Counted from the first letter of the stretch, positions 1 through 28,259 are shown. The stretch: DNA of 64,000 bases from an uncultured Sphingomonadaceae bacterium (GCA_937995515.1 CALKJZ010000007.1:12004-76003), one strand, 5' to 3'. Numbers and translations: made by a program. The notes: a model not told the origin generated them from the sequence alone.

Positions 1-27
1 GCCCGTGGACGGAGACAGAGCTGCCGC

Positions 28-2358
28 TCATGCGAGAAGCTCGGCTGCCGCGTCGAGCACCGCCCCGGCATCGAGCCGGTAGTTGCGGGTCAGGTCGGGG
101 ATGTCGCCGCACTGGCCGAAGCGGTCGACGCCGAGCGGCACCACCCGGTGGCCGCGCACGGCGCCGAGCCACGAGAGGGTTGCCGGCGCGCCATCGACGA
201 GGGTGACGAGGCCCGCGCCCGGTGCAAGCCCGGCAAGCAGCCGGTCGACATGCGCGGGCACTGGCGCGGCTGCCGTCCAGCGGGCGGCGCGCGCGGCCAC
301 CCAGCCGCGGTGCAGGAGGCCGGGCGAGGTGACCTGCAGCAGCCCGACCCCGGGGATCTCCTCTGCCAGCAGGGCATGCGCCTCCAGCGCCTCGGGCATC
401 AGCGCGCCCATTGCCGCAATGGCAAGCGGCGCATCGGGCCGTGGCGCCACAAGCCAGCCACCACCGGCCAGTGCATCGGCCTTCCACTGCGTGCCATGCC
501 TGACCGGCTGGGCGATGCTGCGCGTGGAAAGCCTGAGGTAGACGCTTTCGCCATCCGGCGCCTGCAGCAGCCGAAAGGCCTCCTCGAGGAACAGCGCCAC
601 CTCGTCGGCATAGGCCGGCTCCCACCCGCGCAGGCCCGGCTGGCCCATGGCGATGAGCGGCGGGCTGATCGACTGGTGCGCGCCGCCTTCCGGCCCGAGC
701 AGCAGCCCGGACGGGGTGGCGACAAGGATGAAGCGCGCATCCTGGTAGCAGGCATAGGTCAGCGCATCGAGCCCGCGGGCGATGAACGGGTCGTAGACCG
801 TGCCGATGGGAAACAGGCGCTCGCCAAACAGCGGCGCGGCCAGGCCTGCGGCGGCAAGCATCAGGAACAGGTTGTTCTCGGCGATCCCCAGCTCGACATG
901 CTGGCCGGCCGGGGCGCCGCCCCATTTCTGCGCCGAGGGGATCCCGGCCAGCCGGAAGACGTCGGGCGTCTCCGTGCGCCGGAACAGCCCGCGCTGGTTC
1001 ACGAAGGCGCCAAGACTGGTGGAGACCGTGACATCGGGCGACGTCGTGAGGATGCGCGCGGCGAGCTCGCTCTCGCCCTTGGCGAGCTCGTGGAGGATCC
1101 GCCCGAAGGCGGCCTGGGTGGACTGCTCGGCGCCTGCGGGGGCTGGCACGGCGGGAACGGGGATCGGGCGCGCCGCGCGGTCGCCGCCCTTGCGCGCCAC
1201 GGGGGCTGCCTTCACGAAAGCCTCGAGCGCCTCTGCGACATTCGCCGCAAGCCCTGCCCATTTTTCCCATTCCCGGCCTTCCGGGATCCCAAGGCGCGCG
1301 CGCAGCTCGTGCATCTGCGCAGGTGTCATCAGCCCGGCGTGATTGTCCTTGTGGCCCTGGAAGGGCAGGCCGAAGCCCTTCACCGTATAGGCGATGATGA
1401 GCGTGTTGCGCGTGTCGGCAGCGGCGTCAAAGGCGGCGCACAGCGTCTCGACACAATGGCCGCCGAGGTTGGTCATCAGCCGGGCGAGCGCCTCATCGTC
1501 GTGCCCGGCCACGAGCGCGAGCGCCCTTGCATCATGAGCGAGATCGCGCGCAAGCCGCGCGCGCCATGCCGCCCCGCCCTGGTAGCTGAGCGCCGCAAAG
1601 TCGGCGTTGGGGCAGGAATCGATCCAGTCTCGCAGCGCCTGCCCGCCCGGGCGCGCGAAGGCCTCGCGCTGGCGGCGGCCGTGCTTCAGGGTCATCACGC
1701 GCCAGCCACAGGTCTCGAAGATGTCGTCGAAGCGGGAGAACATGCGGTCTGTGGTGGTCGCATCGAGCGACTGGCGGTTGTAGTCCACGATCCACCAGCA
1801 GTTGCGGATCTCGTGCTTGGCCGCCTCGATCAGGCATTCATAGATGTTGCCCTCGTCGAGCTCGGCATCGCCGAGGAGCGCGATCATCCGGCCGGCGCCT
1901 TCCGGCGCGCGCGCGCCATGGGCGATCAGCCAGTCCTGCACGAGGCTTGCAAAGGCGGTCACGGCAACTCCGAGACCCACCGAGCCGGTCGAGAAATCGA
2001 CCGGGATCCGGTCCTTGGTGCGGCTGGGGTAGCTCTGCGCGCCGCCGAGCGACCGGAAGCGTTCGAGCTGGTCCCGGGTCTGCTGGCCGAGCAGATAGTG
2101 GATGGCGTGCAGCACGGGTGCCGCGTGCGGCTTCACCGCCACCCGGTCATGCGGCCGGAGCGCGTGGAAATAGAGCGCGGCCATGATGGCCGTGATCGAG
2201 GCGCAGCTGGCCTGGTGGCCGCCCACCTTCAGCCCGTCGCGGCTGGGGCGCAGGTGGTTGGCGTGGTGGATGGTCCAGGCGGAAAGCCAGCGCAGCCGCG
2301 TGTCGATCAGCTCGAGGAGGGCCGTGCGGTCGAGCACGTCCGACGGTGCGGTGGTCAT
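28..2358 (-). CDS. TPP-dependent 2-oxoacid dehydrogenase E1-like / transketolase-family enzyme (AceE-like), about 776 aa
   Basis: Lies in ORF 28..2523(-). I place the start at ATG 2358 (MTTAPSDVLDR...), which overlaps the upstream stop as ATGA. AceE/transketolase-type signatures: GGHQASCAS, LGDAELDEGN (TPP/Mg motif), WIVDYNRQSLD, KGFGLPFQGHKDNHAG and C-terminal DRFGQCGD. No E2 or E3 gene is present in the window. Confidence 0.8.
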   Translation of the reverse strand: MTTAPSDVLDRTALLELIDTRLRWLSAWTIHHANHLRPSRDGLKVGGHQASCASITAIMAALYFHALRPHDRVAVKPHAAPVLHAIHYLLGQQTRDQLERFRSLGGAQSYPSRTKDRIPVDFSTGSVGLGVAVTAFASLVQDWLIAHGARAPEGAGRMIALLGDAELDEGNIYECLIEAAKHEIRNCWWIVDYNRQSLDATTTDRMFSRFDDIFETCGWRVMTLKHGRRQREAFARPGGQALRDWIDSCPNADFAALSYQGGAAWRARLARDLAHDARALALVAGHDDEALARLMTNLGGHCVETLCAAFDAAADTRNTLIIAYTVKGFGLPFQGHKDNHAGLMTPAQMHELRARLGIPEGREWEKWAGLAANVAEALEAFVKAAPVARKGGDRAARPIPVPAVPAPAGAEQSTQAAFGRILHELAKGESELAARILTTSPDVTVSTSLGAFVNQRGLFRRTETPDVFRLAGIPSAQKWGGAPAGQHVELGIAENNLFLMLAAAGLAAPLFGERLFPIGTVYDPFIARGLDALTYACYQDARFILVATPSGLLLGPEGGAHQSISPPLIAMGQPGLRGWEPAYADEVALFLEEAFRLLQAPDGESVYLRLSTRSIAQPVRHGTQWKADALAGGGWLVAPRPDAPLAIAAMGALMPEALEAHALLAEEIPGVGLLQVTSPGLLHRGWVAARAARWTAAAPVPAHVDRLLAGLAPGAGLVTLVDGAPATLSWLGAVRGHRVVPLGVDRFGQCGDIPDLTRNYRLDAGAVLDAAAELLA

Positions 2359-4154
2359 CGCATGGCCACCTGCACGCCTCGTGCCCGCGTCGCAAGTGCC
2401 GCCTTCTGGAGTGCCTCGAAGGTGGGTGCGCGCGCATCCGGGTGAAACCAGTGGCAGGTGGCGCAGGCGCCGGAGGCCTCTGCCTCCGGGTGGGCCGCGG
2501 CCCAGCGCGCATTGCCATGGCATTGCCGGCAGGTGCCGATCGGTGGCAGCAGCAGGTCCCCGGAGGTCGTGCTCGAAGGCGCCTTGTGGCAGCTGGAGCA
2601 GCGCATCTCCTCGTGGCGGCCGTGCGGGAACTGGCTTCTCGCATAGAAACGGCCTGCGAGGTGCACGGGGGCGATTGCGAAATCGAGCCGGCCCGGCGCG
2701 CTTTCGGCGCGGATCTCGTGGCAGTCGTGGCAGGCGCCGCCGGGGAGGAAGGGCGCCCGCGCCCGCGCAAGCGCCTCCGCGACCGCCCCGGAGCCCGCAG
2801 TGCCGGCGCCCGGAACCGTGCGCGGTGCGCCGGCCACGGCCGGGCGGGGCGCGGCAGGCGGCCGGAGCGCGATCAGCAGCGCCACCACTTTTTCTGGCTC
2901 GGCGTGCGGCAGGTCGAGGACCTGCTCCCCTGCGCCGGCCACGGCGAGGCTGTGGCAGGCGCCGCAGTCGCGCTCCATCTCGATCGGCCGGAAGCCGATC
3001 TCTGCCGCGTCCGCGCGGTGGCAGTCGGCGCAGCCGAGCGGCCGGCCATAGGCGGAGAGCCGCCCGGCCATCCGGGCAACGGCGTTGCGGCGCGACAGAT
3101 GCTGCGCGTGGCTGAAGACGAGGCCGTTGCGGTCCACAGGGCCTGCATCGAGCGCCACGCGCAGAAGGCGCGGACCGGCGTCGTCGAACCCGGCCACGAC
3201 GTGCGGGCGGAACTGCGGGTGGTCGCGCTGCCAGTCGCTGGCGTTGACGAGATCGGTATCGGGCAGCTTCGAGTCGAGCGCGGCGTGGCAGCCGGCGCAG
3301 TCGCTGGTGGCCGGGTTGTTGCGGAGCGCTGCCCCCTCATGTTCGGTATGGCAGGCGGTGCAGCGACCCGGCGGAAGACCGGCCATGGCGCGCGCGGCCG
3401 CGATCATGGGCGGGGGCGCCGCCATGCTGGCGAGAAGGCGCGCGGGCTCGGCATGGTCGTGGGCTGCGGCGTGGCAGCTGCGGCAGGTCGCGTCCGTCAC
3501 GCTGGTGAACGCCTGCTGGTGGCAGGCCTTGCAGTCTGTCACCAGCGGCCCGTGGACGGAGCTGAGCGGCCCGGAGTTCCACGCCCGGTCCGGGCCGAGG
3601 CCGGCCTCCTGATAGTGCGCCTCGGCTTCGAGGGCCCGCGCGGTCTCCGCGACAGGGGGCAGCGGCCGGGCGAGGAAGCCTGCAACCGGCAACGCAAGAA
3701 AGCCAAGGAGGATGGCGAGCGCCAGCGCCCACGAGGCGGCGCGGCGGCCTTTGACAGGCGGGGTGACCTTCTCGGGCGCCTCCTCCTCGGCATGGGCGCG
3801 CTCGAGGGTGAGACGGATTGTGCCCTGCGTCTCCGGATCCGGCGCAAGGCCGAGCCGAAAGCTGCCGAGCGCAAGCGTGCAGGCCCGGCCGGCCTCGAGC
3901 ACCACGCCCTGCGGCCCGAGCGGGCGCCCGTCGAAGAGCGTTGCCGCCCCGGCCGCGGGCGCGATCCGCACCTCGCCGGGCCCGGCAGCCGACAGGGTGA
4001 GGTGCAGCAGTGCGACGGCAAGATCGGGCACCTCAACATCGCAGTCCGTGCCGCGCCCCACCCGCACGGGGCCGGGCCCAAGATCGCGCTCGCGCACGAT
4101 CGCGCCACCGGAGACGCGCTGGCTGATCTGGCGCAGGCGGAACAGCGGGCTCAC
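2355..4154 (-). CDS. FHA domain / single TM helix / decaheme c-type cytochrome fusion protein (599 aa)
   Basis: Lies in ORF 2355..5039(-). The 5' part of that ORF overlaps the preceding gene out of frame, so I start at GTG 4154 (VSPLFRLRQ...), which forms a GTGA overlap with the upstream stop. It has an N-terminal FHA-like module (VRVGRGTDCDVEVPDLAVALLHLTL...LFDGRPL) and one TM helix (SWALALAILLGFLALPVAGFLA, about 3668-3740). Ten CxxCH motifs follow: CKACH, CRSCH, CTACH, CAGCH, CADCH, CGACH, CHDCH, CSSCH, CRQCH, CATCH. Confidence 0.8.
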   Translation of the reverse strand: MSPLFRLRQISQRVSGGAIVRERDLGPGPVRVGRGTDCDVEVPDLAVALLHLTLSAAGPGEVRIAPAAGAATLFDGRPLGPQGVVLEAGRACTLALGSFRLGLAPDPETQGTIRLTLERAHAEEEAPEKVTPPVKGRRAASWALALAILLGFLALPVAGFLARPLPPVAETARALEAEAHYQEAGLGPDRAWNSGPLSSVHGPLVTDCKACHQQAFTSVTDATCRSCHAAAHDHAEPARLLASMAAPPPMIAAARAMAGLPPGRCTACHTEHEGAALRNNPATSDCAGCHAALDSKLPDTDLVNASDWQRDHPQFRPHVVAGFDDAGPRLLRVALDAGPVDRNGLVFSHAQHLSRRNAVARMAGRLSAYGRPLGCADCHRADAAEIGFRPIEMERDCGACHSLAVAGAGEQVLDLPHAEPEKVVALLIALRPPAAPRPAVAGAPRTVPGAGTAGSGAVAEALARARAPFLPGGACHDCHEIRAESAPGRLDFAIAPVHLAGRFYARSQFPHGRHEEMRCSSCHKAPSSTTSGDLLLPPIGTCRQCHGNARWAAAHPEAEASGACATCHWFHPDARAPTFEALQKAALATRARGVQVAMR

Positions 4155-5017
4155 CAGTAGAAGAACACCGAGACGACATGGGCAAGGAGCGCCGCGAGCA
4201 GCCCGACGGTGGCCGGCACATGGACGAGCAGCCACAGCTGCAGCGTTGACTTCAGCTGCACATGCCGCCGCATCTGCGCGAGCAGGGCCGCGCGCGCCCC
4301 GAGCAGCGCGGCCACCGTCTCGAGTGCCGGGTCGGTCGCATCGAGACGGGCGCGCGCCGCGGCCGTGGCGCAGCGCCGCACGCGGCCGGAAAGCCGCTGC
4401 TCCAGCGTGGGGCCCACAGCGGGGCCGCGGATGGCTGCCTCCACCAGCGCCGCGCTCCGGTCGTCGAGCAGGCGCGCGGCCTCCTTGAGCGCGCGGTCGT
4501 TCTCGGCAAGCGTTGCCGCCATTGCCCGCTCGCTGGTTTCGGCCCGGTTGGCGGAGAGCCGGCGCGGCAGCCGGGCATAGAGCCAGACACCGAGAAGGCC
4601 GGAGAGGATCACCAGCAGCATGAGCCCATAGGCCAGGGTGTGGACATTCCAGCCGAACTGGAAGCCCGTGTGCAGGGTTGCGATCACGCCGAGTGCAAGG
4701 CCCAGCCACACATGCGCGGAAACCCAGGCCTTCAGCGACCATTGGCCATCGGTGTAGCGGCGCTTGCGCAAGCCGAGCAGCGACAGCCAGAGGATGAGGA
4801 GTGCGCCCGCCGTGCCCAGCGCATAGCCGAGCGCCGTGCCGCCGTTGGGCCGCGGCCACGGGTCGTCGAGCGCGTAGAGGAGGACGGCGGCCGCAGTGGC
4901 GAGCAGCGCCACCCACGCCCAGAAGAACCGGCGGTGCCCGAGGAAGCCTTCGTGCCGGGCGGTGCGCCGGCCTTCGGCAGGGGCGCGCATCGCGCCGGCA
5001 GGGATCGGCGCGTTCAC
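4151..5017 (-). CDS. Integral membrane protein with 5 predicted TM helices carrying several intramembrane His (possible heme-b carrier); family not recognised
   Basis: This is the 3' part of ORF 4151..5896(-). The start is GTG 5017 (GTGA overlap with the upstream stop) or ATG 4990. Hydrophobic helices: FFWAWVALLATAAAVLLYAL, ALGYALGTAGALLILWLSLLGL, AWVSAHVWLGLALGVIATLH, VHTLAYGLMLLVILSGLLGVWLYA and LWLLVHVPATVGLLAALLAHVVSVFFYW. An Ala/Arg-rich helical loop of about 100 aa lies between TM4 and TM5. Confidence 0.65.
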   Translation of the reverse strand: MNAPIPAGAMRAPAEGRRTARHEGFLGHRRFFWAWVALLATAAAVLLYALDDPWPRPNGGTALGYALGTAGALLILWLSLLGLRKRRYTDGQWSLKAWVSAHVWLGLALGVIATLHTGFQFGWNVHTLAYGLMLLVILSGLLGVWLYARLPRRLSANRAETSERAMAATLAENDRALKEAARLLDDRSAALVEAAIRGPAVGPTLEQRLSGRVRRCATAAARARLDATDPALETVAALLGARAALLAQMRRHVQLKSTLQLWLLVHVPATVGLLAALLAHVVSVFFYW

Positions 5018-7476
5018 GCGCCGCCCCGCGCAAGCGCAAGGAAGGCCTCGGGCGAAACCCGCAGTGCCGCGCCCGTGGGGCAGGCGCGCACGCAGGCCGG
5101 GCCGCCGGCCTTGCCCGCGCACATGTCGCACTTCACCGCCTTCTTGGCCGGCTCGGCCTCGCCCCTTGCCTTGCGCTCGGCCTTCACCCAGGCCTTCGGC
5201 GGCTCGCCCGGCCCCGGGCCACGGCCGAGAAGCATCCAGGACAGAAGCCCCGGCTTGGGTGGCGGCGGCGCATCCATGCGGATGACGCCATAGGGGCAGT
5301 AGCGCACGCAATTGCCGCAGCCGATGCAGCTCTCGTTGATCGAGACCTCGCCGTCGGCCCCGCGCTGGATGGCGTTGGGCGGGCAGTCGGTCATGCAGTG
5401 CGGGTGCTCGCAATGGCGGCAGGAGGTCGGCACGTGCAGATAGGCAAAGGTGCGCCCGGCCTCCCGGTCGAGCCGCGAGAGGCCGTCGTGGCTGTCGGCG
5501 CAGGCCTTCTCGCAATTGTCGCAGCCCACGCACAGCCGCTCGTCGATCAGCAGCATGTCGGTTGCTTCGCCGATCCCGTTTTCCATGAGGAAGGCCGCGG
5601 TCTCGCTGTAGAGATCGATTGCGCTTCCGAAGCGGTGCTTTTCCTGTTCGATGAAGGCGGTCAGCGACCGGCGCGCAGCCATGTCTGCAAGCATGCGCGC
5701 GCGCAGCTCCGGCCGGGTCTCGAACAGGGCGCGAAACTCCCGGCCTTCCAGCCGCAGCAGCTCCGAACGGATGGCCGCGCGCACCGTCGCCGTGCGCCTG
5801 CTGCCATCGATGACGGCCATTTCCCCGAAATAGGATCCGGCCGGCAGATAGTTGAGGAACACCTGCCGGCCGCCCAACTCCTTTTCCACCACGCACGAGC
5901 CGCGGCGGATCACGACCAGGCTGTCATCGGTATCGCCCTCGGCGATGATGCGCTCGCCGGCGCGCACCGTCTGCTGCTCGGCGCTGGCGAGGATCGGCGC
6001 GAGATCCTCCGCGCTGAGCCCCGACTGGAAGATCTGCAAGAGCAGCCGGGTGGTGGTGATCCGGTCCACTTCGGCGCGCGCTTGCGGCACGGTGCCGATG
6101 AGCCGCAGCGCGGCGTTGCGCGGCAGCTCCACCAGCGTTGCAGGCCCGTGCGCGCGCACCGTCGCCCCCCGCCTCCGGCCCGAGATGAGGCCCACCTCGC
6201 CCACGATCGAGCCGGTCTCGATGATCGCGGTGCGCCGCGGCGGGCCGGCGGCGATCTCCACCTCCACCTCGCCCTCGGCAATGGCGAACAGCGAGGCGCC
6301 GACATCGTTCTTCACAAACACCGTCTCGCCCGGGGCAAACTGCCGTACCCGGGCATCGAGCAGCAGTTCGCGCATCTGGAGCGGAGAGACATGGCGGAAG
6401 ATCGACACCTCGCGCCGGAACAGCGCAATCCATTCGGCCACGCTGCGCGCCGGGCTGAGGCCGCCGAGGCGCTGCTCGAGGATCGGCTCGTCGGCCGGCT
6501 TCAGCTCCGTGTTGCCGGCGATGAACTCGATGACGTCGTGGCCCTGGTTGAGACAGTGCTTGATGAGCGGATAGCCGGCCAGCGCGCCGATGATGTAGAG
6601 GCCGGGCACGCTTGTCTCGTAGGTGGGGGACAGCGTCGGAAACGCCTCGCGCGCTGCGGAGGCGAAGGCAACGCCCGCCTGTTCCACGAAGGCGCGCGGC
6701 GGCGCCGAGCCGAGCCGCGCGATCACCCGGTCGCAGCGCAGCCGTGCCTCGCCGTCGCGCGTGTCCACCACCATGTGACCGGGCTCCAGCCGGTTGGGCG
6801 AGGTTTCGGTCAAAACCGTCAGCCGGCCGGCATCTCGCGCTGCGAAAAGCGCCTTTACATTGGCATCCTTGGCCCTGGCGAAATCGGCCGAGCGGTTGAG
6901 GATGGTGACGTGGTTGCCCTGCACCGGATCGGCCGCCAGCCCCAGCGCATTCTCGATCCCGGCGTCGCCCGAGCCCACCACGATGATATGGGAGTCCACA
7001 TATTCGCCGGGATCGTCGAGCGTGTACTGGACAATGGGCATTCCCGGCTCGCCCACCCCTCTTGCGCGCAGAAGGTTGGGGTTGCCCTGGGTGCCGATTG
7101 CCAGCACCACATGCGCTGCGAGGATCGTCTCGCCGCCGGCGAGACCGAGGACGAAGGCACCCCGGCTGCCCGAGATCGATGTCACCTCGGCCTCGAGCCT
7201 TATGGCGATGCCCACCTCGGCGGCGTCGCGGTTCCAGCGGTCGAGCACGGCCTCGCGCGCGCCTGGCTCGAAGCCCACATCCGCACGCAGCAGCAGCTGC
7301 GCGGGCGTTGCCATCACATGCTTGCCCTTCTGGTAGCGATAGACGGTATCGCTCAGATGGTCGGTCTTCTCGAGCAGGAGGTGGCGCATGCCCCGCCGGG
7401 CGGCGCGCGCGGCCGCCGCAAGCCCCGCGGGCCCGGAGCCGATGATGGCCACATCAAGCCGTTCGTCCACCGCCAC
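5014..7476 (-). CDS. Fusion protein: FAD/NAD(P)-dependent pyridine-nucleotide-disulfide-type oxidoreductase + two cyclic-nucleotide-binding domains + DmsB/NrfC-type poly-[4Fe-4S] ferredoxin (820 aa)
   Basis: ORF as given, with a GTG start at 7476 preceded by GGAGAGG. It has two dinucleotide-binding folds (VAIIGSGPAGLAAA, IIVVGSGDAGIENA) and two cNMP modules (IVGEVGLISGRRRGATVRA, YFGEMAVIDGSRRTATVRA). It also has four Cys clusters: CVGCDNCEKAC, CRHCEHPHCMTDCP, CIGCGNCVRYCP and CDMC...CVRACP. Confidence 0.85.
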   Translation of the reverse strand: MAVDERLDVAIIGSGPAGLAAAARAARRGMRHLLLEKTDHLSDTVYRYQKGKHVMATPAQLLLRADVGFEPGAREAVLDRWNRDAAEVGIAIRLEAEVTSISGSRGAFVLGLAGGETILAAHVVLAIGTQGNPNLLRARGVGEPGMPIVQYTLDDPGEYVDSHIIVVGSGDAGIENALGLAADPVQGNHVTILNRSADFARAKDANVKALFAARDAGRLTVLTETSPNRLEPGHMVVDTRDGEARLRCDRVIARLGSAPPRAFVEQAGVAFASAAREAFPTLSPTYETSVPGLYIIGALAGYPLIKHCLNQGHDVIEFIAGNTELKPADEPILEQRLGGLSPARSVAEWIALFRREVSIFRHVSPLQMRELLLDARVRQFAPGETVFVKNDVGASLFAIAEGEVEVEIAAGPPRRTAIIETGSIVGEVGLISGRRRGATVRAHGPATLVELPRNAALRLIGTVPQARAEVDRITTTRLLLQIFQSGLSAEDLAPILASAEQQTVRAGERIIAEGDTDDSLVVIRRGSCVVEKELGGRQVFLNYLPAGSYFGEMAVIDGSRRTATVRAAIRSELLRLEGREFRALFETRPELRARMLADMAARRSLTAFIEQEKHRFGSAIDLYSETAAFLMENGIGEATDMLLIDERLCVGCDNCEKACADSHDGLSRLDREAGRTFAYLHVPTSCRHCEHPHCMTDCPPNAIQRGADGEVSINESCIGCGNCVRYCPYGVIRMDAPPPPKPGLLSWMLLGRGPGPGEPPKAWVKAERKARGEAEPAKKAVKCDMCAGKAGGPACVRACPTGAALRVSPEAFLALARGGA

Positions 7477-7570
7477 CTCTCCGCCGCCTCGCGGGCCCAG
7501 GGTCTGGCTCAGGGTCTAGCACAGCCATGCGGCAAGGCCAGCGCCCTTGCGCCTCTTGCCGCGGCAGGCC

Positions 7571-7640
7571 CCGGCGCGGCATGCCGGCGGCCGATGAAAA
7601 CGGCGGGCTCCGGCGCGGCAAGCCGGCGGCTGATGCAACC
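7571..7640. repeat. Two copies of a 31-bp direct repeat (27/31 identical, 39-bp period) in the divergent intergenic region
   Basis: Copy 1 is ccggcgcggcatgccggcggccgatgaaaac (7571-7601). Copy 2 is ccggcgcggcaagccggcggctgatgcaacc (7610-7640). They lie between the start of the 5014-7476 gene and ccmF. Confidence 0.6.
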
Positions 7641-7726
7641 GTCGGGCTGCGGCAACACTCGCCTTTACGGACCGCGCGCGATGCTCCTAAGGGTGGCGGA
7701 GGCGGGCGGCTGGAAGAGAGGGACTG

Positions 7727-9727
7727 GTGGAAGCGGAAATCGGCCATTTCGCCCTGTTGCTGGCGCTCGTGCTGGCAACCGTCCAGGCTGTCGCCGCGCC
7801 GGCCGGCGCGCGGCGGCTCGATCCGGCCCTCATGGCGGTCGGGCGGGTGGCGGCCATGCTGCAGGGCGGGCTCGTTCTTCTCGCCTTCCTCATCCTCATG
7901 CTGCTGTTTGCCCGGCTCGACTTCTCGGTCGAGCTGGTCGCGCAGCACGCCCACAGCCTGCAGCCGATGGTCTACCGCCTCTCTGCCACCTGGGGCAATC
8001 ACGAGGGCTCGATGCTGCTGTGGATCCTGATCCTCTCGGGCTTCGGGGCGATGGTGGCGGCCGGCGGCGCGGCGATGCGGCCCTCGTTCCACGCGCTGGT
8101 GGTCGGTCTCCTTGGTCTCATGTCGGTTGCGTTCCTTGCGTTCCTCCTTTTCACGTCGAACCCGTTCGGGCGGTTGTGGCCCGCGGCGGTCGAGGGCGCA
8201 GAGCTCAACCCCCTGCTGCAGGACCCTGGCCTCGCCCTTCATCCACCGATCCTCTATGTCGGCTATGTCGGCCTGTCGGTGGCCTTTGCCTTTGCCCTTG
8301 CAGCCCTCATCGAGGGGCGGGTCGATGCTGCCTGGGCGCGGACGGTCCGGCCGTGGATCCTCGCCTCCTGGTCTGCGCTGACCGCCGGCATCACGCTCGG
8401 GTCCTTCTGGGCCTATTATGAGCTTGGCTGGGGTGGCTGGTGGTTCTGGGATCCGGTCGAGAATGCCGCGCTCCTGCCCTGGCTGATCGCAACCGCGCTC
8501 CTCCATTCCGCGCTCGTGCTCGAGAAGCGCGGCAGCCTCGTGGGCTGGACCCTGCTGCTCTCGGTTGCGGCCTTCTCGATGAGCATGATCGGCACCTTCC
8601 TCGTGCGCTCGGGCGTCCTCACCTCGGTGCATGCCTTTGCCACCGATCCGGCGCGCGGCAGCTTCATCCTGGCGATCATTGCCGGCTTCACCGGTGTCGC
8701 CCTTGCGCTGTTTGCATGGCGTGCGCCCGGGCTGTCGCGCGGGCCGTCGTTCGGCCCGGTCAGCCGCGAATCCGGCATGGTGGCAAACAACCTGTTCCTG
8801 ATGGCGGCGACCTTCGCCGTCTTCCTCGGCACCTTCTGGCCGCTCATCGTCGACCTCGTGTCGGGCAACAAGATCTCCGTTGGCCCGCCCTACTACAACA
8901 TCACCTTCCTGCCGATCGTGGTGCCGCTCCTGTTCCTCGTGAGCCTCGGGCCCGTCTCGCGCTGGAAGACCGACCGGCCTTCCGAAGTGCTGCGCCGCCT
9001 CCGGCCGGCATCGGCCGTGGCGCTGCTCGTCATGGCGGCCGCTTTGGCGCTTTCGGTGTGGCAGGCCGGGTGGGATGCGCTCTTTGCCGCGCTGGGCTTC
9101 GGCCTTGCGGCGTGGCTGGTGGCCGGCGCCGGCGTGGCGCTGGCCCGCCGCTGGCGTGCGGCGGGCGAGGCGTTCAGCCTGCGCCTTGTCCGCACGACCC
9201 CTGCGGCCACGTGGGGCATGGCGATGGCCCATGCCGGGCTCGGCATCATGGCAGCGGGGATCACGGCCATGTCGCTGTTCACCGTCTCCGAGGTTGCCTC
9301 GCTCGCGCCCGGGGAGCGCACCGAGATTGCCGGCCGCACCCTCACGCTGACCCAGGTGGGGCCCGTCCGGGGGCCCAACTACGAGGCGCTGCAGGCACGC
9401 TTCTGGCTGCAGGAAGGGGCGAGCCTGCGCGAGGTGATCTCCGAGCGCCGGTTCTACCCGGCCAGCCGCCAAGGCACCACCGAGGCGGGGATCGATGTCG
9501 GCGTCTTCGGCAACACCTATGTCTCGATCGGCGACGTAACCGGCGGGCGGCTCGCGGTGCACAAGTGGCGCCATCCGCTGGTGGGCTGGATCTGGGCCGG
9601 CGCGCTCATCATGGCGCTGGGCGGCGCGGTCTCCATGGCAGACCGGCGGTTCCGGCTCCCGCGGGCGGCGCCGCCCGTGCCGGCGGCCGGGGCTCCGGCG
9701 TCTGCCGCCGCCCTGCCCGCGGAGTGA
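7727..9727 (+). CDS. ccmF: Cytochrome c-type biogenesis heme lyase subunit CcmF
   Basis: A 666-aa polytopic membrane protein with the WGGWWFWDPVEN (WWD) heme-handling motif. GTG start. It is followed directly by ccmG, ccmH and ccmI. Confidence 0.95.
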   Translation: MEAEIGHFALLLALVLATVQAVAAPAGARRLDPALMAVGRVAAMLQGGLVLLAFLILMLLFARLDFSVELVAQHAHSLQPMVYRLSATWGNHEGSMLLWILILSGFGAMVAAGGAAMRPSFHALVVGLLGLMSVAFLAFLLFTSNPFGRLWPAAVEGAELNPLLQDPGLALHPPILYVGYVGLSVAFAFALAALIEGRVDAAWARTVRPWILASWSALTAGITLGSFWAYYELGWGGWWFWDPVENAALLPWLIATALLHSALVLEKRGSLVGWTLLLSVAAFSMSMIGTFLVRSGVLTSVHAFATDPARGSFILAIIAGFTGVALALFAWRAPGLSRGPSFGPVSRESGMVANNLFLMAATFAVFLGTFWPLIVDLVSGNKISVGPPYYNITFLPIVVPLLFLVSLGPVSRWKTDRPSEVLRRLRPASAVALLVMAAALALSVWQAGWDALFAALGFGLAAWLVAGAGVALARRWRAAGEAFSLRLVRTTPAATWGMAMAHAGLGIMAAGITAMSLFTVSEVASLAPGERTEIAGRTLTLTQVGPVRGPNYEALQARFWLQEGASLREVISERRFYPASRQGTTEAGIDVGVFGNTYVSIGDVTGGRLAVHKWRHPLVGWIWAGALIMALGGAVSMADRRFRLPRAAPPVPAAGAPASAAALPAE

Positions 9728-9731
9728 GGCG

Positions 9732-10277
9732 GTGCGCCGCCTTCTCGCCTTCCTTCCGCTGGTGGCGCTCGCGGGGCTGCTCATCGCCTTCGGCTTCGGG
9801 ATGCAGCGCGACCCCAAGATCCTGCCCTCGCCGCTGGTGGGCGAGACCGTGCCGGGCTTTCAGCTCGCGGCCCTCGAGGAGGGCGGCGCGCCGCTCGATT
9901 CCGGCCTTCTTGCCCGCGATGGCGAGCCCAAGCTGCTCAACGTCTTCGCATCCTGGTGCGTGAGCTGCCGCGTGGAGCATCCCGTTCTCTTGCGGATTGC
10001 GGCCGAGGGCGTGCCGATCTACGGGCTCGACTGGAAGGACACCCCGGAAGACGGCCGCGCCTATCTTGCCGGCAAGGGCAACCCGTTCCGTGCCGTGGGC
10101 AGCGATCCAAACGGCCGGGCCGGGATCGAGCTCGGGGTCACCGGCACGCCCGAGACCTTCGTGATCGATGCGCGCGGCATCATCCGCCACCGCCATGTCG
10201 GCCCGATCACCGCCGAAGTCTGGGAACGGGAGCTGCGGCCGATGATCGAGCGGCTGCGCGCTGAGGCGGCGGCCTGA
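9732..10277 (+). CDS. ccmG: Thiol:disulfide interchange protein CcmG/DsbE
   Basis: Has an N-terminal membrane anchor, the thioredoxin-fold active site WCVSC, and GVTGTPETFVID. Starts 4 nt after the ccmF stop. Confidence 0.9.
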   Translation: MRRLLAFLPLVALAGLLIAFGFGMQRDPKILPSPLVGETVPGFQLAALEEGGAPLDSGLLARDGEPKLLNVFASWCVSCRVEHPVLLRIAAEGVPIYGLDWKDTPEDGRAYLAGKGNPFRAVGSDPNGRAGIELGVTGTPETFVIDARGIIRHRHVGPITAEVWERELRPMIERLRAEAAA

Positions 10278-10278
10278 G

Positions 10279-10710
10279 ATGCGCGGGCTGGGCCTCCTTG
10301 CTGCCCTGCTGCTCGCGGTGCTGCCCGCCCACGCCGTCGAGCCCGACGAGATGCTGGCCGACCCGGCGCTCGAGGCGCGCGCGCGGGCCATCTCCGCGGG
10401 TCTGCGCTGCGTGCAGTGCCAGAACCAGACCATCGACGAAAGCAACGCCCCGCTCGCGCGCGACCTGCGCCTTATCGTGCGCGAACGGCTGGAGGCGGGC
10501 GACAGCGACGCGGAAGTGATCGCCCATGTGCGCGCGCGCTATGGCGATTTCGTGCTCCTGAAGCCGCCGCTCAACGAGCAGACGCTGCTGATGTGGGCCG
10601 GCCCCTTCCTTGCGCTCCTCGGCGCGGGCGCCTTCCTCTTCTGGCGGATGCGGCGGCCGCCTGCCATGGACGAGGACGAGGCGGAGCTTCTGGAGCAGGA
10701 CAGGCCCTGA
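10279..10710 (+). CDS. ccmH: Cytochrome c-type biogenesis protein CcmH (CcmL)
   Basis: Has a signal peptide, the LRCVQCQNQTIDESNAP motif and a C-terminal TM helix. Starts 1 nt after the ccmG stop. Confidence 0.9.
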   Translation: MRGLGLLAALLLAVLPAHAVEPDEMLADPALEARARAISAGLRCVQCQNQTIDESNAPLARDLRLIVRERLEAGDSDAEVIAHVRARYGDFVLLKPPLNEQTLLMWAGPFLALLGAGAFLFWRMRRPPAMDEDEAELLEQDRP

Positions 10711-10711
10711 G

Positions 10712-11953
10712 ATGAGCGAGATCTGGCTGTGGGCAGCGCTCACGCTGCTCGTGGTGATGGCGGCCGTCACCCTCGTGTTCCCGCTTGCGGCGCGCAGCGC
10801 CGACGCGCGCGAGCTTGCCATTGCGGCCGAGCAGGCCCCCGTCTTGGCGGGGCTTGCCAATGAGCTGGCCAGCATCGACCGTCAGCTTGCCGAGGGTGCG
10901 CTCGCGCCCTCCGAGGCGGCTGCCCTGCGCGCCAGCATCCGCCGCCGCATGCAGGAAGAGGCCGCGCTCGTGGCCGATGTGCAGGGCCGGGCGGGCCGTG
11001 CCGGCGACGGCGGCACCCGCTGGCTCGCCTATGCCCTGGCCGCCTCGGTGACGGTGGGTGCCGCCGGCCTCTATGGCTGGATGGGCCGGCCCGACATTGC
11101 CCGCCAGGCGGGCGCGCCGCCGGGGCAGGTGGCGGTGGCAACGGGACCCGATGGCCAGCCGCTCGGCGCCAACCCGGAAGTGCAGCAGCTCGTCCGCCAG
11201 CTGGAGGCCCGGCTCGCCGCCGAGCCGGGCGATGCCGAGGGCTGGCGGATGCTGGGGTGGAGCCGCTTCGAGCTCGGCGATTTCCGGGGCTCGGCCGAGG
11301 CCTATGCGCGCGCCGTCGAGCTCCAGCCGGGCAATGCGCTCTACCTCTCCGCGCTCGGCGAGGCGCAGGTGATGGCCACCGGCGGCGAGATCACGCCGGC
11401 CGCCCGCGCGATTTTCGCCCGTGCCGTGGCTGCAGACCCGCGCGACGTGCGCGCCCGCTACTATCTTGCCGCCGCCCGCGACCAGGCCGGCGACACCCGG
11501 GGCGCGGTCGAGGACTGGCTGGCGCTCGTCGCCGAGGATCCTTCGGCTCCCTGGGTGGCGCAGCTGCGGCCGATCATCCTCGCGCGCGCCGAGGCGGCCG
11601 GCATGGACGTGCGCGCGCGCCTGCCGGCCGCGCCGGCCGCCTCGGCACCGGGCGTGCCGCCGGGCGTGCTTGCTGCGCCCAGCCCCGAACAGGTGGCCGA
11701 AGCCAATGCCATGTCGCCGGCCGACCGGCAGGCGATGATCCGCGGGATGGTCGACGGGCTGGAGGCGCGACTGCGCGAGAACCCGCAGGATCTCGAGGGC
11801 TGGCAGCGGCTGATCCGCGCCCGGATGGTGCTCGGCGAGGAAGACCGCGCCCGCCGCGCCTATGCCGATGCGCGGCGGGCCTTTGCCGGCAAGCCGGCGG
11901 AACTCGGCCAGCTGCAGAGCTTTGCGCGGCTGGTGAACCTGCCGGGCGCCTGA
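10712..11953 (+). CDS. ccmI: Cytochrome c-type biogenesis protein CcmI/CycH (2 TM + TPR)
   Basis: I start at ATG 10712 (MSEIWLWAALTLLVV...), just after the ccmH stop; the track ORF 10610.. begins inside ccmH. It has two TM helices and then TPR-like repeats (GWRMLGWSRFELGDFRGSAEAYARAVELQPGN). Confidence 0.8.
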   Translation: MSEIWLWAALTLLVVMAAVTLVFPLAARSADARELAIAAEQAPVLAGLANELASIDRQLAEGALAPSEAAALRASIRRRMQEEAALVADVQGRAGRAGDGGTRWLAYALAASVTVGAAGLYGWMGRPDIARQAGAPPGQVAVATGPDGQPLGANPEVQQLVRQLEARLAAEPGDAEGWRMLGWSRFELGDFRGSAEAYARAVELQPGNALYLSALGEAQVMATGGEITPAARAIFARAVAADPRDVRARYYLAAARDQAGDTRGAVEDWLALVAEDPSAPWVAQLRPIILARAEAAGMDVRARLPAAPAASAPGVPPGVLAAPSPEQVAEANAMSPADRQAMIRGMVDGLEARLRENPQDLEGWQRLIRARMVLGEEDRARRAYADARRAFAGKPAELGQLQSFARLVNLPGA

Positions 11954-11978
11954 GCGGGCCCGGCACCGGCCGCGCTCA
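11951..11978. terminator. GC-rich hairpin between convergent genes; both stop codons lie in the stem (possible bidirectional terminator)
   Basis: The sequence is tgagcgggcc-cggcacc-ggccgcgctca, a 10-bp stem with one bulge and a 7-nt loop. There is no U-tract. Confidence 0.4.
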
Positions 11979-12887
11979 GGGGCAGATGGTGCTGCCCGGC
12001 GGGCATTCCTTGGTGGCCGGGCGGGCGGGCAGGTCGGCGCTTGCCGGCAGAAGGTCGGTCACCTGCCGGTCGGCCGGTGACGCCTCGAGGGCCGCGGCGA
12101 ACACGGCCGCCGAGGGGATCGGCCACAGCTGCGCGTCCGTTTCCCCGTCGGGCGCGGTGCGCAGCAGGTCCGAGAAGCGGGCAAAGGCGCGGGCGGAAAG
12201 GGCAAAGGGCCCGACCGGTGGCTGGCCGGGGCCTGGCACCAGCAGGGCGAAGCCGGGCCGGTCGAGCGCCACCGTCTGCCCGGCCGCCGTCACGAACAGA
12301 CGGCCGGGCCGGTCGCGCCCGCGCGTCCGCGCGCCCGGCCCGCGCAGCACCACGAGTGTGGCCGACTGCGGGTCGAGCGCCGGGGTGGGCGGCGGCGCAT
12401 CGAGGAGCGCCATGATGGCGAGCACCTCCTCGCCGACCGTGCCTTCGAGAACCGTTCCGCGCACGCCGATGCTGGCAACCGGGGTGGAGACGGCTGCCGC
12501 GCCGCCCTGGCCGCGCACGGCCCGGCCCGACATGAAGCGGAAGGCGCCGCGCGCGACCGAGGCGGCCACCTCGCCCGTCGCCCGGTCCGGGTCGTAGACA
12601 AATCGGTCGATCGTCATGCGGGCATTGGCGCCGACGGTGAACACCGAACGGTCGACCAGGAGCACCTGCAGCTGGCTTGCGGCCGCGGTCGCCACCTGCG
12701 TGCCGAGGAACACCGGCTCGCGCAGCACCGCCGGGCGGAGCGCCCGATCGCGCCACGTCTGCACGGAGACACTGTTGCGGATGGCGCTGTTCACGCCAAC
12801 CGAGGGCGGAGGCGCGCCCTGCGCAAGCGCGGGCGCGGCGGCCAGCGCGGCGAAGGCGAGCAGGGAAACGGCGCCGGCGCGGCTCAT
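11976..12887 (-). CDS. FecR-domain protein with signal peptide (303 aa)
   Basis: Signal peptide MSRAGAVSLLAFAALAAAPALAQG. FecR-type core: VFLGTQVATAAASQLQVLLVDRSVFTVGANARMTIDRFVY...ARGAFRFMSG. The start overlaps the upstream stop as ATGA (12884-12887). Confidence 0.8.
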   Translation of the reverse strand: MSRAGAVSLLAFAALAAAPALAQGAPPPSVGVNSAIRNSVSVQTWRDRALRPAVLREPVFLGTQVATAAASQLQVLLVDRSVFTVGANARMTIDRFVYDPDRATGEVAASVARGAFRFMSGRAVRGQGGAAAVSTPVASIGVRGTVLEGTVGEEVLAIMALLDAPPPTPALDPQSATLVVLRGPGARTRGRDRPGRLFVTAAGQTVALDRPGFALLVPGPGQPPVGPFALSARAFARFSDLLRTAPDGETDAQLWPIPSAAVFAAALEASPADRQVTDLLPASADLPARPATKECPPGSTICP

Positions 12888-14398
12888 TCGCCGAACGACC
12901 AGATGAGCCGCACCTCGCCGCCGATATTGTCGTAATCGACATAGGGCGCGCGCGTCGTGCGGCCGGTGTAGGAGAGCGCGCCCTCGAGCGTGAGCCCCTC
13001 GCGCAGGTCTGCCGTGGCGCCGGCGTTGGTGAAGGCCGAAATGGGCGCGCCAAGTGCAGCGCGCGCAAAGCTGCGCGTCTCCTTGCGCACGGGCCCGCCC
13101 AGCACCGGGTCGGGCGCCTTGTAGGTCAAGAAGCGCAGGTTTCCGGCCAGCGCCGAATAGGCGCCGCGGCCCAGCTCGGTGCGGAACGAGGCAGCAACCC
13201 CCGGCCCGGAATAGGCAAGCGGGCGATGGTCGGCATCCTTGTCCTCATAGGCCACTTCGCCCGCGATGGTGCTGCGGCCCGAAAGCCGGTGCGAGACCCC
13301 GGCCGAGACCGCGATCCGCGCGCCCGAGCGGGCGTCCTCGGCAAGTCCGGGCACGAGCCCCGCGAGCAGCGGCTCCTCGAACGACTGGTGCATGGCCTCG
13401 GCGGCCGCATCGAGCGCTGTCAGGTGGGTGAGTCGGTGCGCCAGCGCCAGCCGGCCGCCCACCTCGGTGAGATAGGGATCGCCGAACAGGGACACGTGCC
13501 TGAGCAGGCCTGCCACCGACCAGATCGTGCGCGCGCCGATCTCGCCTGAAAGCCCGAGCGAAAGATCGGCGCGCAGGGTCTCGAGGGGCGGGCCGGAGAG
13601 CTCCTTGCGCCCCTGGGCGGAGGCAAGGAGCGTGAGCACCGTGCGGCTGTCCTGCCCCAGCCTCCAGGCAACCCGAAGCCGCCCGCCGCCGCCGAAGCCG
13701 AGGCCATCGTCGGTTGGCCCGCTGCCGAGGCCCACATCGATGAGGCTTGCAAGCGCGCCGGTTGCGTTGCTGTCGTAAAGGAGGCCGAGGTTCGCCGAGC
13801 CCGAGACGCTGACCAGCCGGTCGCGCCGGGCGATCGCCCGGCGATACTTGGCCGCCTCGGCGCGCTGCAGCGCCGTCAGCTCCACATCGTCGAGCAGGTC
13901 GAGCTCGCGCGCGGCGCCCTGATGGTCCTCCATGCGATAAAGGATGATGGCATAGAAGAGCCGCGCGGCGTGCCAGTTGGGCTGTTTCAGCAGCAGGCGC
14001 TCGAGTGCTGCGGCTGCCGAAAGCAGATCGCCCTGCGCTGCGGAGCGGCGGGCGAACCCGATGTTGAGCTCCGGATCGTCGGGCGCGCGCAGCACCGTGT
14101 CGAACAATCGGTCTCCCGACCCGGAAATCACGATGTCGCGGCCGTCCTTGCGCGCTTCAAGCGTCGCCTCGATCGAGATCTCCTCGTCGCGGGTCTGCGG
14201 CCGGTCGAAGCCGGCGAACGGATCCTCCGCGCCCGGCGCCTGCGCCAGGGCGGCTGCGGCCCGGAGGGCGCATGCAAGGCAGGCGAGCGCGGGCGCGCCA
14301 CGCCGCCATCCGGGTCTGCTGGGCCGGGCTCGTTCCCCCACTGCACGATTCCTTGCCGTGTCAGCCGTCTGTTCATCGTGCATCGTGCCGTTGTTCAT
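12884..14398 (-). CDS. Outer-membrane protein: N-terminal TPR region + C-terminal beta-barrel (Slam/DUF560-like or NsrA-like architecture)
   Basis: I start at ATG 14398 (MNNGTMHDEQ...), but the start is uncertain and a later GTG is possible. A signal-like segment (APALACLACALRAAAALAQA) is followed by TPR-like helices (GDLLSAAAALERLLLKQPNWHAARLFYAIILYRMEDHQGAAREL). Alternating beta-strand patterns follow (SANLGLLYDSNATG...) up to the C-terminus (...GEVRLIWSFGE). The family assignment is from memory of the architecture, not from a search. Confidence 0.65.
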   Translation of the reverse strand: MNNGTMHDEQTADTARNRAVGERARPSRPGWRRGAPALACLACALRAAAALAQAPGAEDPFAGFDRPQTRDEEISIEATLEARKDGRDIVISGSGDRLFDTVLRAPDDPELNIGFARRSAAQGDLLSAAAALERLLLKQPNWHAARLFYAIILYRMEDHQGAARELDLLDDVELTALQRAEAAKYRRAIARRDRLVSVSGSANLGLLYDSNATGALASLIDVGLGSGPTDDGLGFGGGGRLRVAWRLGQDSRTVLTLLASAQGRKELSGPPLETLRADLSLGLSGEIGARTIWSVAGLLRHVSLFGDPYLTEVGGRLALAHRLTHLTALDAAAEAMHQSFEEPLLAGLVPGLAEDARSGARIAVSAGVSHRLSGRSTIAGEVAYEDKDADHRPLAYSGPGVAASFRTELGRGAYSALAGNLRFLTYKAPDPVLGGPVRKETRSFARAALGAPISAFTNAGATADLREGLTLEGALSYTGRTTRAPYVDYDNIGGEVRLIWSFGE

Positions 14399-14412
14399 GC
14401 GAGAGTGCAAGC

Positions 14413-17681: not shown

Positions 17682-17698
17682 CGGGAAGCCCGCGTCAG
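17678..17698. terminator. Short hairpin between convergent genes with both stop codons in the stem
   Basis: The sequence is ctgacggg-aagc-ccgcgtcag, an 8-bp stem with one bulge. TGA at 17679-17681 ends the phosphodiesterase gene and TCA at 17695-17697 is the tpsA stop. Confidence 0.3.
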
Positions 17699-26304: not shown

Positions 26305-26321
26305 GGCGGGCCTTCCTTCGC

Positions 26322-28070: not shown

Positions 28071-28259
28071 CCCCGTCCCCCTGAAAAGGCTCCGGCGCAC
28101 AGGGGGTTGACCCCCCCCTTTCCAACCGGCCCCGGCATGCAGGTTACCGGCCTTTGCCGCGGCAGACAAGCAACAGCCGGGCCAACTTGGTGCAGTTCCG
28201 CCTTGCCGGGCGTGCGCCCGCTGGCGTAGCCTTCGCGGCGGCAAGGAGGCAAAGGGGGA

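Follow-up and report, generated by a model that had tools for sequence, protein, structure and literature searches.

We analysed a 64,000-nucleotide stretch of DNA, the window (G+C about 71%), from an uncultured Sphingomonadaceae bacterium (GCA_937995515.1 CALKJZ010000007.1:12004-76003). At its start lies a minus-strand gene cluster whose first three genes, here called g1, g2 and g3, encode a flavo-iron-sulfur (flavo-FeS) protein with modules for binding cyclic nucleotide monophosphates (cNMPs), a membrane protein with five transmembrane (TM) helices, and a decahaem cytochrome c with an FHA-fold domain. Judged by sequence, this core belongs to the ptdEFG/NHC kind of cluster, which has been described in preprints but not characterised. 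We think it fairly probable that the three proteins form an inner-membrane conduit of this kind, in which electrons from NAD(P)H are exported to the periplasm under the control of a cyclic nucleotide. The co-oriented genes are as follows.

Positions 5014-7476, minus strand: g1, 820 amino acids (aa), flavo-FeS subunit.
Positions 4151-5017, minus strand: g2, 288 aa, 5-TM membrane subunit.
Positions 2355-4154, minus strand: g3, 599 aa, FHA fold, TM helix and decahaem cytochrome c domain.
Positions 28-2358, minus strand: g4, 776 aa, AceE-like thiamine pyrophosphate (TPP)-dependent E1 of the homodimeric type.
Positions 1-31, minus strand: start only of a fifth co-oriented gene, with an ATGA overlap with the g4 stop codon at 28-31.

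As the initial annotation of this DNA had it, four consecutive minus-strand genes are joined by overlapping stop and start codons: GTGA between g1 and g2 (5014-5017) and between g2 and g3 (4151-4154), and ATGA between g3 and g4 (2355-2358). Its list of four genes stands, with the fifth ATGA-coupled gene overlooked. The latter leaves the window after a visible N-terminus of MSGSSVSVHG; in the closest relative, a metagenome contig (L087), its equivalent encodes an SNF-family (Na+-dependent) transporter and is followed by gatCAB. Stop/start overlaps of four bases are common in high-GC operons. Scanning positions 1-8000 for promoters and terminators was uninformative, with none of the former detected and the latter no more frequent than chance alone would give. 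Because they are conserved in more than 80 genomes, g1, g2 and g3 are, on sequence grounds, genuine genes and not chance open reading frames (ORFs). Profile searches with the domain families named in the initial annotation upheld its calls for g1, for the haems of g3 and for g4; the FHA domain of g3 scored below threshold, and its fold was confirmed from a structural model, as described below.

A protein search with g3 returned about 100 full-length relatives, mostly from Sphingomonadaceae, and a genome scan with a nine-sequence alignment found relatives in at least 470 species genomes. Eighty of these loci were fetched, 50 of them with full 10-kb flanks. Wherever the sequence of a Sphingomonadales locus extends far enough upstream, it shows g1, g2 and g3 as a colinear set on one strand, with g2 always encoded between the other two; identities to the window are 57-81% for g1, 46-70% for g2 and 34-66% for g3. 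The closest named relative, Thermaurantiacus tibetensis (L088; 64% identical), likewise has all three genes. The same colinear arrangement is found in three loci from distant Proteobacteria (L082, L084 and L086), at identities of 44-47% (g1), 40-53% (g2) and 27-32% (g3). The g3 family comprises 1853 clusters at 50% identity (profile search, E<=1e-30), nearly all of the best 150 listed being full length, and its gammaproteobacterial members are annotated as 'FHA domain-containing protein'. Most of the hosts found are aerobic heterotrophic Sphingomonadales. The initial annotation had proposed a self-contained cytoplasm-to-periplasm electron-transfer module of four gene families that should co-occur elsewhere. 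For g1-g3, which are colinear throughout, this proposal is supported by gene order, invariant redox ligands and topology; g4, in contrast, is found in none of the 50 full loci and drops out of the module.

The product of g1 had been described as a flavoprotein with two dinucleotide folds, fused to two cNMP-binding modules and a ferredoxin with four Cys clusters, and each of these parts is confirmed by profiles and motifs. It comprises a TrxR/YpdA-like domain for FAD and NAD(P)H, tandem cNMP-binding modules and a HycB/DmsB-like ferredoxin domain for four [4Fe-4S] clusters, and has no signal peptide. Pfam matches include Pyr_redox_2 (90.7 bits), Pyr_redox_3, several 4Fe-4S dicluster families and cNMP_binding (PF00027; 114.6 bits against a cut-off of 27.5, in two modules). 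Among 75 homologues, both dinucleotide motifs are conserved (GSGPAG for FAD, GSGDAG for NAD(P)H), as are both phosphate-binding cassettes, GEVGLISGRRRGAT and GEMAVIDGSRRTAT, which are of the Gly-Glu ... Arg-x-Ala type. The ferredoxin domain has the 16 Cys of the DmsB/NrfC/HycB four-cluster ferredoxins, in four motifs starting at Cys649, Cys686, Cys717 and Cys783, and all 16 are invariant (75/75). Against PDB sequences, the FeS domain matches HycB (E 5.9e-20) and HycB3/4 best, the tandem cyclic nucleotide-binding (CNB) modules align to PKA regulatory subunits, and the flavin domain matches YpdA/TrxR-like flavoproteins. The score against the thioredoxin reductase model TIGR01292 is low (57 bits versus a cut-off of 343), and no CxxC was found in the FAD region, which has only the isolated Cys248 and Cys308. 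By sequence, then, g1 resembles YpdA and TrxR-like enzymes without the disulfide. The two isolated cysteines are themselves conserved, in 74/75 and 75/75 homologues, respectively.

Hydropathy analysis confirms that g2 is a five-helix protein with five His in TM3-TM5: His102 and His116 lie in TM3, His126 at the start of TM4, and His266 and His280 in TM5. The initial annotation had allowed that these intramembrane His might vary among homologues; none of the five changes across 33 homologues, the most distant of which are 41% identical. The pairs 102/116 and 266/280 each have i/i+14 spacing, and such spacing on two helices is the pattern of di-haem b bundles, as in cytochrome b of the bc1 complex and in the NOX/FRD family. 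By the positive-inside rule, one pair would lie at the cytoplasmic level of the membrane and the other at the periplasmic level. Between TM4 and TM5 is a cytoplasmic, helical insert of about 110 residues; in the AlphaFold (AF2) model the predicted local distance difference test score (pLDDT) is 73.5 overall and above 90 in this insert, with moderate confidence in the TM region. Across the family, PF01292 (prokaryotic b561) is matched by 30/33 members (E<0.1, best 4.8e-8) and PF01794 by 11/33, and UniRef names homologues 'Ferric reductase like transmembrane component'. The His pattern thus suggests that g2 is a candidate di-haem cytochrome b subunit, in which four His would be able to ligate two haems. 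We do not assign it to a specific di-haem b family, as hhalign, fold and PDB profile searches were negative.

In g3, a cytoplasmic FHA-fold domain (residues 1 to about 120) is followed by a single TM helix (143-161), which is preceded by basic residues, and then by a periplasmic decahaem c domain. Ten CxxCH motifs and ten further His are invariant in 22 homologues, and these residues fit a predicted set of ten bis-His haems. Multihaem family profiles match this region, the DmsE family weakly (27.4 bits). The N-terminal module falls below the Pfam thresholds for both FHA (PF00498; 16.9 versus 20.7 bits) and Yop-YscD_cpl (27.1 versus 33.2 bits), and precomputed PF00498 matches are present in many homologues. 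An AF2 model of the N-terminal 120 residues has a pLDDT of 91.9, and all 50 PDB matches listed by Foldseek are FHA or FHA-like (YscD-type) domains, with probability 1.00 and target TM-scores of 0.6-0.7. At the level of the model, then, the FHA beta-sandwich fold is confirmed, and with it the earlier description of g3 as an FHA module on the cytoplasmic side, one TM helix, and ten CxxCH haem motifs on the other side.

Whether this FHA domain reads phosphothreonine (pThr) is another matter. Among 49 family members, the signature residues Gly33-Arg34 (49/49) and His51 (45/49) are conserved. The Ser of the SxxH motif is Ala in the window (family: Ala 25, Thr 6, Ser 6), and the Asn position is Asp in the window (family: Asn 33, Asp 11). 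No Ser/Thr kinase or PP2C gene was found among the scanned window ORFs or the conserved neighbours of the cassette. Given that the pThr-binding Ser and Asn are both replaced in the window and vary across the family, and that no kinase or phosphatase gene is nearby, phosphorylation-independent docking is more likely than pThr reading, and the gating by Ser/Thr phosphorylation that had been suggested for this system is weakly founded.

To place the cassette among known systems, we compared it with two clusters described in preprints. In ptdABCDEFG, PtdE is a cNMP-binding protein with 4Fe-4S, PtdF a ferric-reductase-like membrane protein and PtdG a decahaem cytochrome, with no assigned function (bioRxiv 10.1101/2023.11.21.568154). 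The ptdEFG core is the same as g1-g2-g3 in composition and order, and locus L084 has the full ptdABCDEFG layout: pentahaem, porin-like, tetrahaem, tetrahaem, g1, g2 and decahaem (g3). By tblastn, the last three are 46%, 46% and 29% identical to the window genes, and the comparison with ptd rests on the architecture of the L084 operon and on homology to it rather than on accession-listed Ptd sequences. The window has every feature of the ptdEFG/NHC type: a cNMP/4Fe-4S protein, an adjacent 5-TM protein and a single-TM decahaem cytochrome with an FHA domain. A c554-like tetrahaem partner, similar to PtdC/D, is present in the window too. Unlike in ptd, genes for a PtdA-type pentahaem and a PtdB-type porin are not next to g1-g3; their place is taken by genes for an LVIVD decahaem, a barrel-like protein and an HbpS-like lipoprotein, at a distance of 21 kb. 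The ptd paper also lists a separate FAD/NAD(P) oxidoreductase, whereas in the window the FAD domain is fused to the cNMP/FeS protein. Its hosts are organisms of saline environments; the Sphingomonadales hosts are aerobic heterotrophs of non-saline habitats, in which a phosphodiesterase-like gene and ccmI are conserved partners of the cassette.

The second cluster, 'NHC' of Ferrigenium straubiae, comprises an FHA-nonahaem protein, a 5-TM protein and a [4Fe-4S] protein, again with no assigned function (bioRxiv 10.64898/2026.01.22.701106). Like g3, its multihaem protein has a single TM helix and a cytosolic FHA domain, next to a 5-TM neighbour and a cytosolic FeS protein, all without signal peptides, although it has nine haems versus ten in g3. 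The host is a betaproteobacterial Fe(II) oxidiser in which the context (nirK and an SHP-like gene) is unlike that in the window. The authors of that preprint could identify no redox motif in its 5-TM protein, thought the FHA-multihaem fusion unreported, and favour inward flow to quinone (10.64898/2026.01.22.701106). We favour the outward direction.

Three better-known groups share parts of the design. NOX/FRD proteins pass electrons from a cytoplasmic NAD(P)H-flavin dehydrogenase across the membrane through two bis-His b haems, for which two helices supply the ligands as His pairs spaced by about 13-14 residues. The outline of g1-g2 is similar, and the weak PF01794 matches among g2 members point the same way. 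Here, in contrast, the dehydrogenase and membrane parts are on separate polypeptides, with a four-cluster FeS wire and cNMP modules between them, the acceptor would be a decahaem cytochrome in place of O2 or Fe(III), and g2 has no significant sequence or fold match to MsrQ or PDB entries. CymA, ImcH, CbcL and the DmsE family resemble g3 in having a membrane-anchored periplasmic multihaem c domain, which CbcL combines with a b-type membrane domain. CymA, ImcH and CbcL draw on the quinol pool and lack the FHA and cNMP modules of g3 and g1, whereas the donor here would be a cytoplasmic flavo-FeS protein, with no recognised quinol site. HycB and HycB3/4, from formate hydrogenlyase and HDCR, are the cytoplasmic electron wires closest to the g1 FeS domain; they are stand-alone hydrogenase or formate dehydrogenase subunits, not fused to a flavoprotein or to cNMP modules.

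A literature search found no account of this cluster in Sphingomonadales; searching for LVIVD with multihaem proteins led to an unrelated Tenderiales paper, and FHA with decahaem added nothing new. The earlier statement that no characterised system has this composition therefore stands as regards characterisation. As for the composition itself, the same three-gene set appears in two preprints, and the FHA-decahaem fusion belongs to a large family (the 1853 clusters above). The Sphingomonadales form is distinct in four traits: the phosphodiesterase-like gene in the operon, the link to ccmI, the LVIVD/HbpS/barrel set, and hosts that are non-saline aerobic heterotrophs. New in this analysis are the invariant His pairs of g2 and the FHA fold with its variable pThr-binding Ser and Asn.

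Conserved neighbours were identified by comparing the ORFs of one reference Sphingomonas locus, and the window proteins, with the 50 full-flank loci. Those on the g1 side of the cassette in the window include the following.

Positions 7727-11953, plus strand: ccmF-ccmG-ccmH-ccmI, divergent from g1 (from ORFs, and Pfam matches of the L087 and L088 equivalents).
Positions 14272-16704, plus strand: adenylate/guanylate cyclase with a CHASE2 sensor (CHASE2 182.8 bits, Guanylate_cyc 79.1 bits).
Positions 16830-17681, plus strand: class-III (CpdA/SpdA-like) metallophosphoesterase, a candidate cNMP phosphodiesterase.

In 50/50 loci, g3 is followed on its own strand by a metallophosphoesterase gene. 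The window copy is 9 kb from the cassette and 52% identical to the gene downstream of g3 in locus L003, which has a Metallophos domain (75.7 bits). Its best-scoring models, SpdA (150.6 versus a cut-off of 400 bits) and CpdA (78.8 versus 225), both remain below threshold, and by sequence its CpdA/SpdA membership holds at the superfamily level only. In the window this gene directly follows that for the CHASE2 cyclase, the pair being 7-10 kb from g1, and the cyclase is a candidate source of the cNMP ligand for g1. The suggestion that cyclic nucleotides gate the system has thus gained support, from the conservation of both g1 cassettes, from the phosphodiesterase-like gene present in all 50 loci, and from the proximity of cyclase and phosphodiesterase genes in the window. 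The gene for the CcmI-type TPR protein adjoins the cassette, on the g1 side, in 48/50 loci. Also encoded here are a FecR-domain protein (11976-12887, minus strand) and a 605-aa protein without family match (12884-14704, minus strand), divergent from the cyclase; the same pair is found beside ccmI in T. tibetensis.

Candidate periplasmic and outer-membrane partners are encoded in a second cytochrome cluster, at 28.3-37.3 kb.

Positions 28260-29657, plus strand: c554-like periplasmic cytochrome (Pfam Cytochrome_C554), with four CxxCH and one CX4CH; PtdC/D-like tetrahaem partner.
Positions 29657-31585, plus strand: lipoprotein with three HbpS/GlcG-like domains (three stretches matching Pfam HbpS-like; lipobox LAGC).
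Positions 31570-33381, plus strand: 603-aa secreted protein without family match (signal peptide; C-terminal ...LSY).
Positions 33384-37286, plus strand: 1300-aa secreted decahaem cytochrome, with ten CxxCH and C-terminal LVIVD beta-propeller repeats (Pfam LVIVD).

In the distant loci, counterparts of these genes are found next to the cassette. The c554-like protein is 40-47% identical to the products of genes directly upstream of g1 in L084 and L086, and HbpS-like homologues adjoin g3 in L082 and L086, so that in L086 the cassette is preceded by a c554-like gene and followed by an HbpS-like one. L082 has g1-g2-g3 and then HbpS-like, barrel-like and LVIVD decahaem genes in one same-strand operon. 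Homologues of the 603-aa protein, a candidate outer-membrane barrel by sequence, are 57-65% identical in 20/50 loci and 52% identical in L082; those of the LVIVD decahaem are 63-70% identical in 20/50 loci and 59% identical in L082. In 20/50 loci the second cytochrome cluster lies tail-to-tail with the phosphodiesterase gene. Neither the LVIVD decahaem nor the c554-like protein gave matches to PDB sequences. The c554-like cytochromes of the window, L084 (3864-6626) and L086 (2341-3774) share a conserved CX4CH near the N-terminus in addition to four CxxCH, and may bind five haems.

From the domain content, ligand conservation, gene linkage and FHA fold established above, we infer the cofactors of g2, the donor, the direction of flow, the gating by cNMP and the final acceptor as follows. 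Cytoplasmic NAD(P)H would reduce the FAD of g1, from which electrons would pass to its four [4Fe-4S] clusters. They would then cross the membrane by way of two b haems with bis-His ligation, placed between TM3 and TM5 of g2, with His102 and His266 as the presumed ligands of the cytoplasmic-side haem and His116 and His280 as those of the periplasmic-side haem. After g2, the next carriers would be the ten bis-His c haems of the periplasmic g3 domain, from which electrons would go on, most likely, to the c554-like cytochrome and the LVIVD decahaem/barrel/HbpS-like set of the second cluster. Because the cNMP modules sit between the flavin and FeS domains of g1, ligand binding could gate the FAD-to-FeS transfer. 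The level of the ligand would be set by the class-III phosphodiesterase, whose gene is in the operon in most Sphingomonadales and appears to have been relocated beside the CHASE2 cyclase gene in the window. The FHA fold of g3 is more likely to dock onto g1, or onto the cytoplasmic insert of g2, than to read pThr. Transfer from NAD(P)H (about -320 mV) to low-potential FeS clusters and bis-His haems is downhill, and the membrane potential favours electron export; outward flow is favoured for both these reasons.

Several observations weigh against this scheme. The literature holds no experimentally characterised member of the family. The NAD(P)H donor is suggested by the TrxR/YpdA-like fold of g1, and the actual substrate could differ. 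The argument for haem b in g2 is one from the His pattern, because comparisons by family, fold and hhalign were negative: the window protein is below the Pfam threshold (PF01292, 18.0 versus 30.1 bits, with no family above threshold); Foldseek of its model against the PDB gave no match at E<=0.001 and only non-significant hits to long-helix proteins (BAR domains); hhalign comparison of the g2 family with E. coli MsrQ and YodB yielded a probability of 0.3%; and a family profile search of PDB sequences returned nothing relevant. Of the other loci, only 1/50 has a cyclase gene within 10 kb of the cassette. As for the second cytochrome cluster, it is 21 kb distant in the window, and the 20/50 loci noted above are the only ones where it comes within 10 kb. 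Finally, the preference of the Ferrigenium authors for inward flow stands opposed to the direction we propose (10.64898/2026.01.22.701106).

That direction is the subject of one alternative, an inward conduit in which electrons from Fe(II), reduced metals, other cytochromes or a similar donor in the periplasm or outside the cell enter at the decahaem and move by way of g2 and g1 to NAD(P)+, or into the quinone pool. We regard this as unlikely, although TrxR-like flavoenzymes are reversible and relatives of the cassette occur in Sulfuriflexus and in Methylococcales metagenome-assembled genomes. A homologous cluster is also expressed in the Fe(II) oxidiser F. straubiae, where it has been proposed to connect outer-membrane Fe(II) oxidases with the inner membrane (10.64898/2026.01.22.701106). 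Flow in this direction would run against the membrane potential and uphill to NAD(P)+, and is disfavoured because it needs energy coupling and no coupling subunit is present. Family profile searches detected no quinone-site family in g2, and the hosts found are mostly the aerobic heterotrophs already mentioned.

A second alternative is a redox-sensing or signalling device, in which the periplasmic haems report redox state and the FHA domain, cNMP modules and phosphodiesterase turn it into a second-messenger output. FHA and paired CNB modules of regulatory type are indeed embedded in the redox subunits, a phosphodiesterase-like gene is in the operon in all 50 loci, a CHASE2 cyclase is encoded nearby in the window, and the HbpS-like partner comes from a family tied to redox-stress sensing in Streptomyces. 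What makes this reading quite improbable is the extent of the redox chain, whose centres in series (FAD, four FeS clusters, two b haems and ten c haems, totalled as sixteen), together with the multihaem partners, go far beyond usual sensors, while no output domain (kinase, DNA-binding domain or GGDEF) is fused to it or conserved nearby.

We give equally little credence to a third alternative, that g2 is a haem-free scaffold and that g1 and g3 have separate functions, or that g3 exchanges electrons with quinones in the manner of NapC/CymA. It would account for the lack of a significant fold or profile match of g2 and for the moderate confidence of the TM region in its model, and InterPro found nothing in the Ferrigenium g2 homologue (10.64898/2026.01.22.701106). 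A scaffold of this kind is hard to reconcile with five invariant His inside or at the ends of TM helices, two pairs of them at i/i+14, and with weak family-wide matches to two different di-haem b Pfam families. Moreover, g1 and g3 are on opposite sides of the membrane and their genes always flank that of g2.

The remaining alternative concerns g4, which the initial annotation had made a fourth member of the module. Profile matches to Transketolase_N, Transket_pyr and PDH_E1_M agree with its earlier description as an AceE/transketolase-type E1. It scores well below the AceE equivalog TIGR00759 (159 bits, cut-off 860), and its alignment to E. coli E1 begins at E. coli residue 80, the N-terminal (E2-binding) segment being missing. 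Of the observation that neither E2 nor E3 is encoded nearby, the E2 part holds, since no E2 homologue was found in the 64-kb window; E3 was not searched separately. g4 follows g3 only in the window and in L087, where g3 is 73% identical, the layout g1-g2-g3-g4-SNF is the same and the g3 and g4 codons again overlap. It is absent from T. tibetensis as from the 50 full loci, and in the reverse comparison g1-g3 are absent from 80/80 metagenome loci holding g4 relatives at 62-72% identity. Given that g4 is missing elsewhere and that its relatives occur without g1-g3, the conserved unit is one of three genes, and the four-gene operon is rejected as a functional unit on co-occurrence. A lipoyl-domain E2 acyltransferase is encoded downstream of the g4 relative in 8/28 full-length loci (for example L101, 8338-9618), which suggests that enzymes of the g4 type are true 2-oxoacid dehydrogenase E1s, the gene for their E2 often being located elsewhere. 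By these sequence comparisons, g4 and the SNF transporter are lineage-specific additions to the cassette, g4 coming from a widespread E1 family of its own. The proposed entry of electrons from a 2-oxoacid is unlikely because lipoyl-E2, and not a ferredoxin, is the electron acceptor of AceE-type E1 enzymes. A 2-oxoacid:periplasm oxidoreductase in which g4 feeds g1 is thus very improbable and largely refuted by the co-occurrence data, despite the g3/g4 codon overlap in the window and L087 and the presence of GarA/OdhI among the FHA fold matches, the more so as g4 is coupled to the downstream SNF transporter too. GarA/OdhI are FHA proteins that bind 2-oxoglutarate dehydrogenase E1, and in the window lineage an E1-like gene directly follows that for the FHA-cytochrome; this parallel may be a coincidence.

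The rest of the window supplies the setting. Between the two cytochrome clusters (17698-28100, minus strand), a TpsB transporter of the ShlB/FhaC type is encoded at 26325-28100, upstream of a giant ORF that is rich in Ala, Gly and Asp codons and up to 3115 aa long. The latter has an internal signal peptide and an N-terminus resembling those of two-partner secretion (TPS) substrates, with no Pfam match at E<1e-5, and the two genes probably encode a TPS pair. From 37.5 to 64 kb are genes for a gdhA-like glutamate dehydrogenase, SelO, Mrp antiporter subunits, purA, prephenate dehydratase, a mono-haem cytochrome c and a PAS-GGDEF protein. This context is housekeeping in character and therefore points to a chromosomal setting, not a mobile element.

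A wider picture can be drawn by joining these results, though we hold it only tentatively and consider it rather doubtful as a whole. Aerobic Sphingomonadales and many other Proteobacteria would possess a NOX-like machine for electron export, gated by a second messenger and bypassing the quinone pool. Electrons from NAD(P)H would be released through FAD, FeS clusters, b haems and c haems only upon binding of a cyclic nucleotide, and would reach an outer LVIVD decahaem/barrel complex, to be used in extracellular chemistry such as the reduction of metals or organic oxidants or the production of superoxide. The FHA fold would serve as a phospho-independent clamp coupling the cytoplasmic and membrane subunits and, in the window lineage, might also bind the adjacent E1-like enzyme, by analogy with the binding of KGD by GarA.

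The system is widespread and of unusual design; its composition had already been noticed by others, and the E1 gene is outside it. Clusters of the ptd/NHC kind are known from Fe(II) oxidisers and from oxygen-deficient zones of the ocean, and the invariant His pairs of g2 offer a testable answer to how electrons cross the membrane, which neither preprint had settled. The hosts reported here, Sphingomonas, Sphingobium and Novosphingobium, are aerobic heterotrophs of soil and water that are genetically tractable for testing the role of ptd/NHC. If the export reading is true, cytoplasmic reducing power would have a very widespread quinone-free route across the inner membrane (at least 470 species genomes; 1853 clusters), and the cassette would be one of few respiratory-type electron wires that a cyclic nucleotide switches directly.

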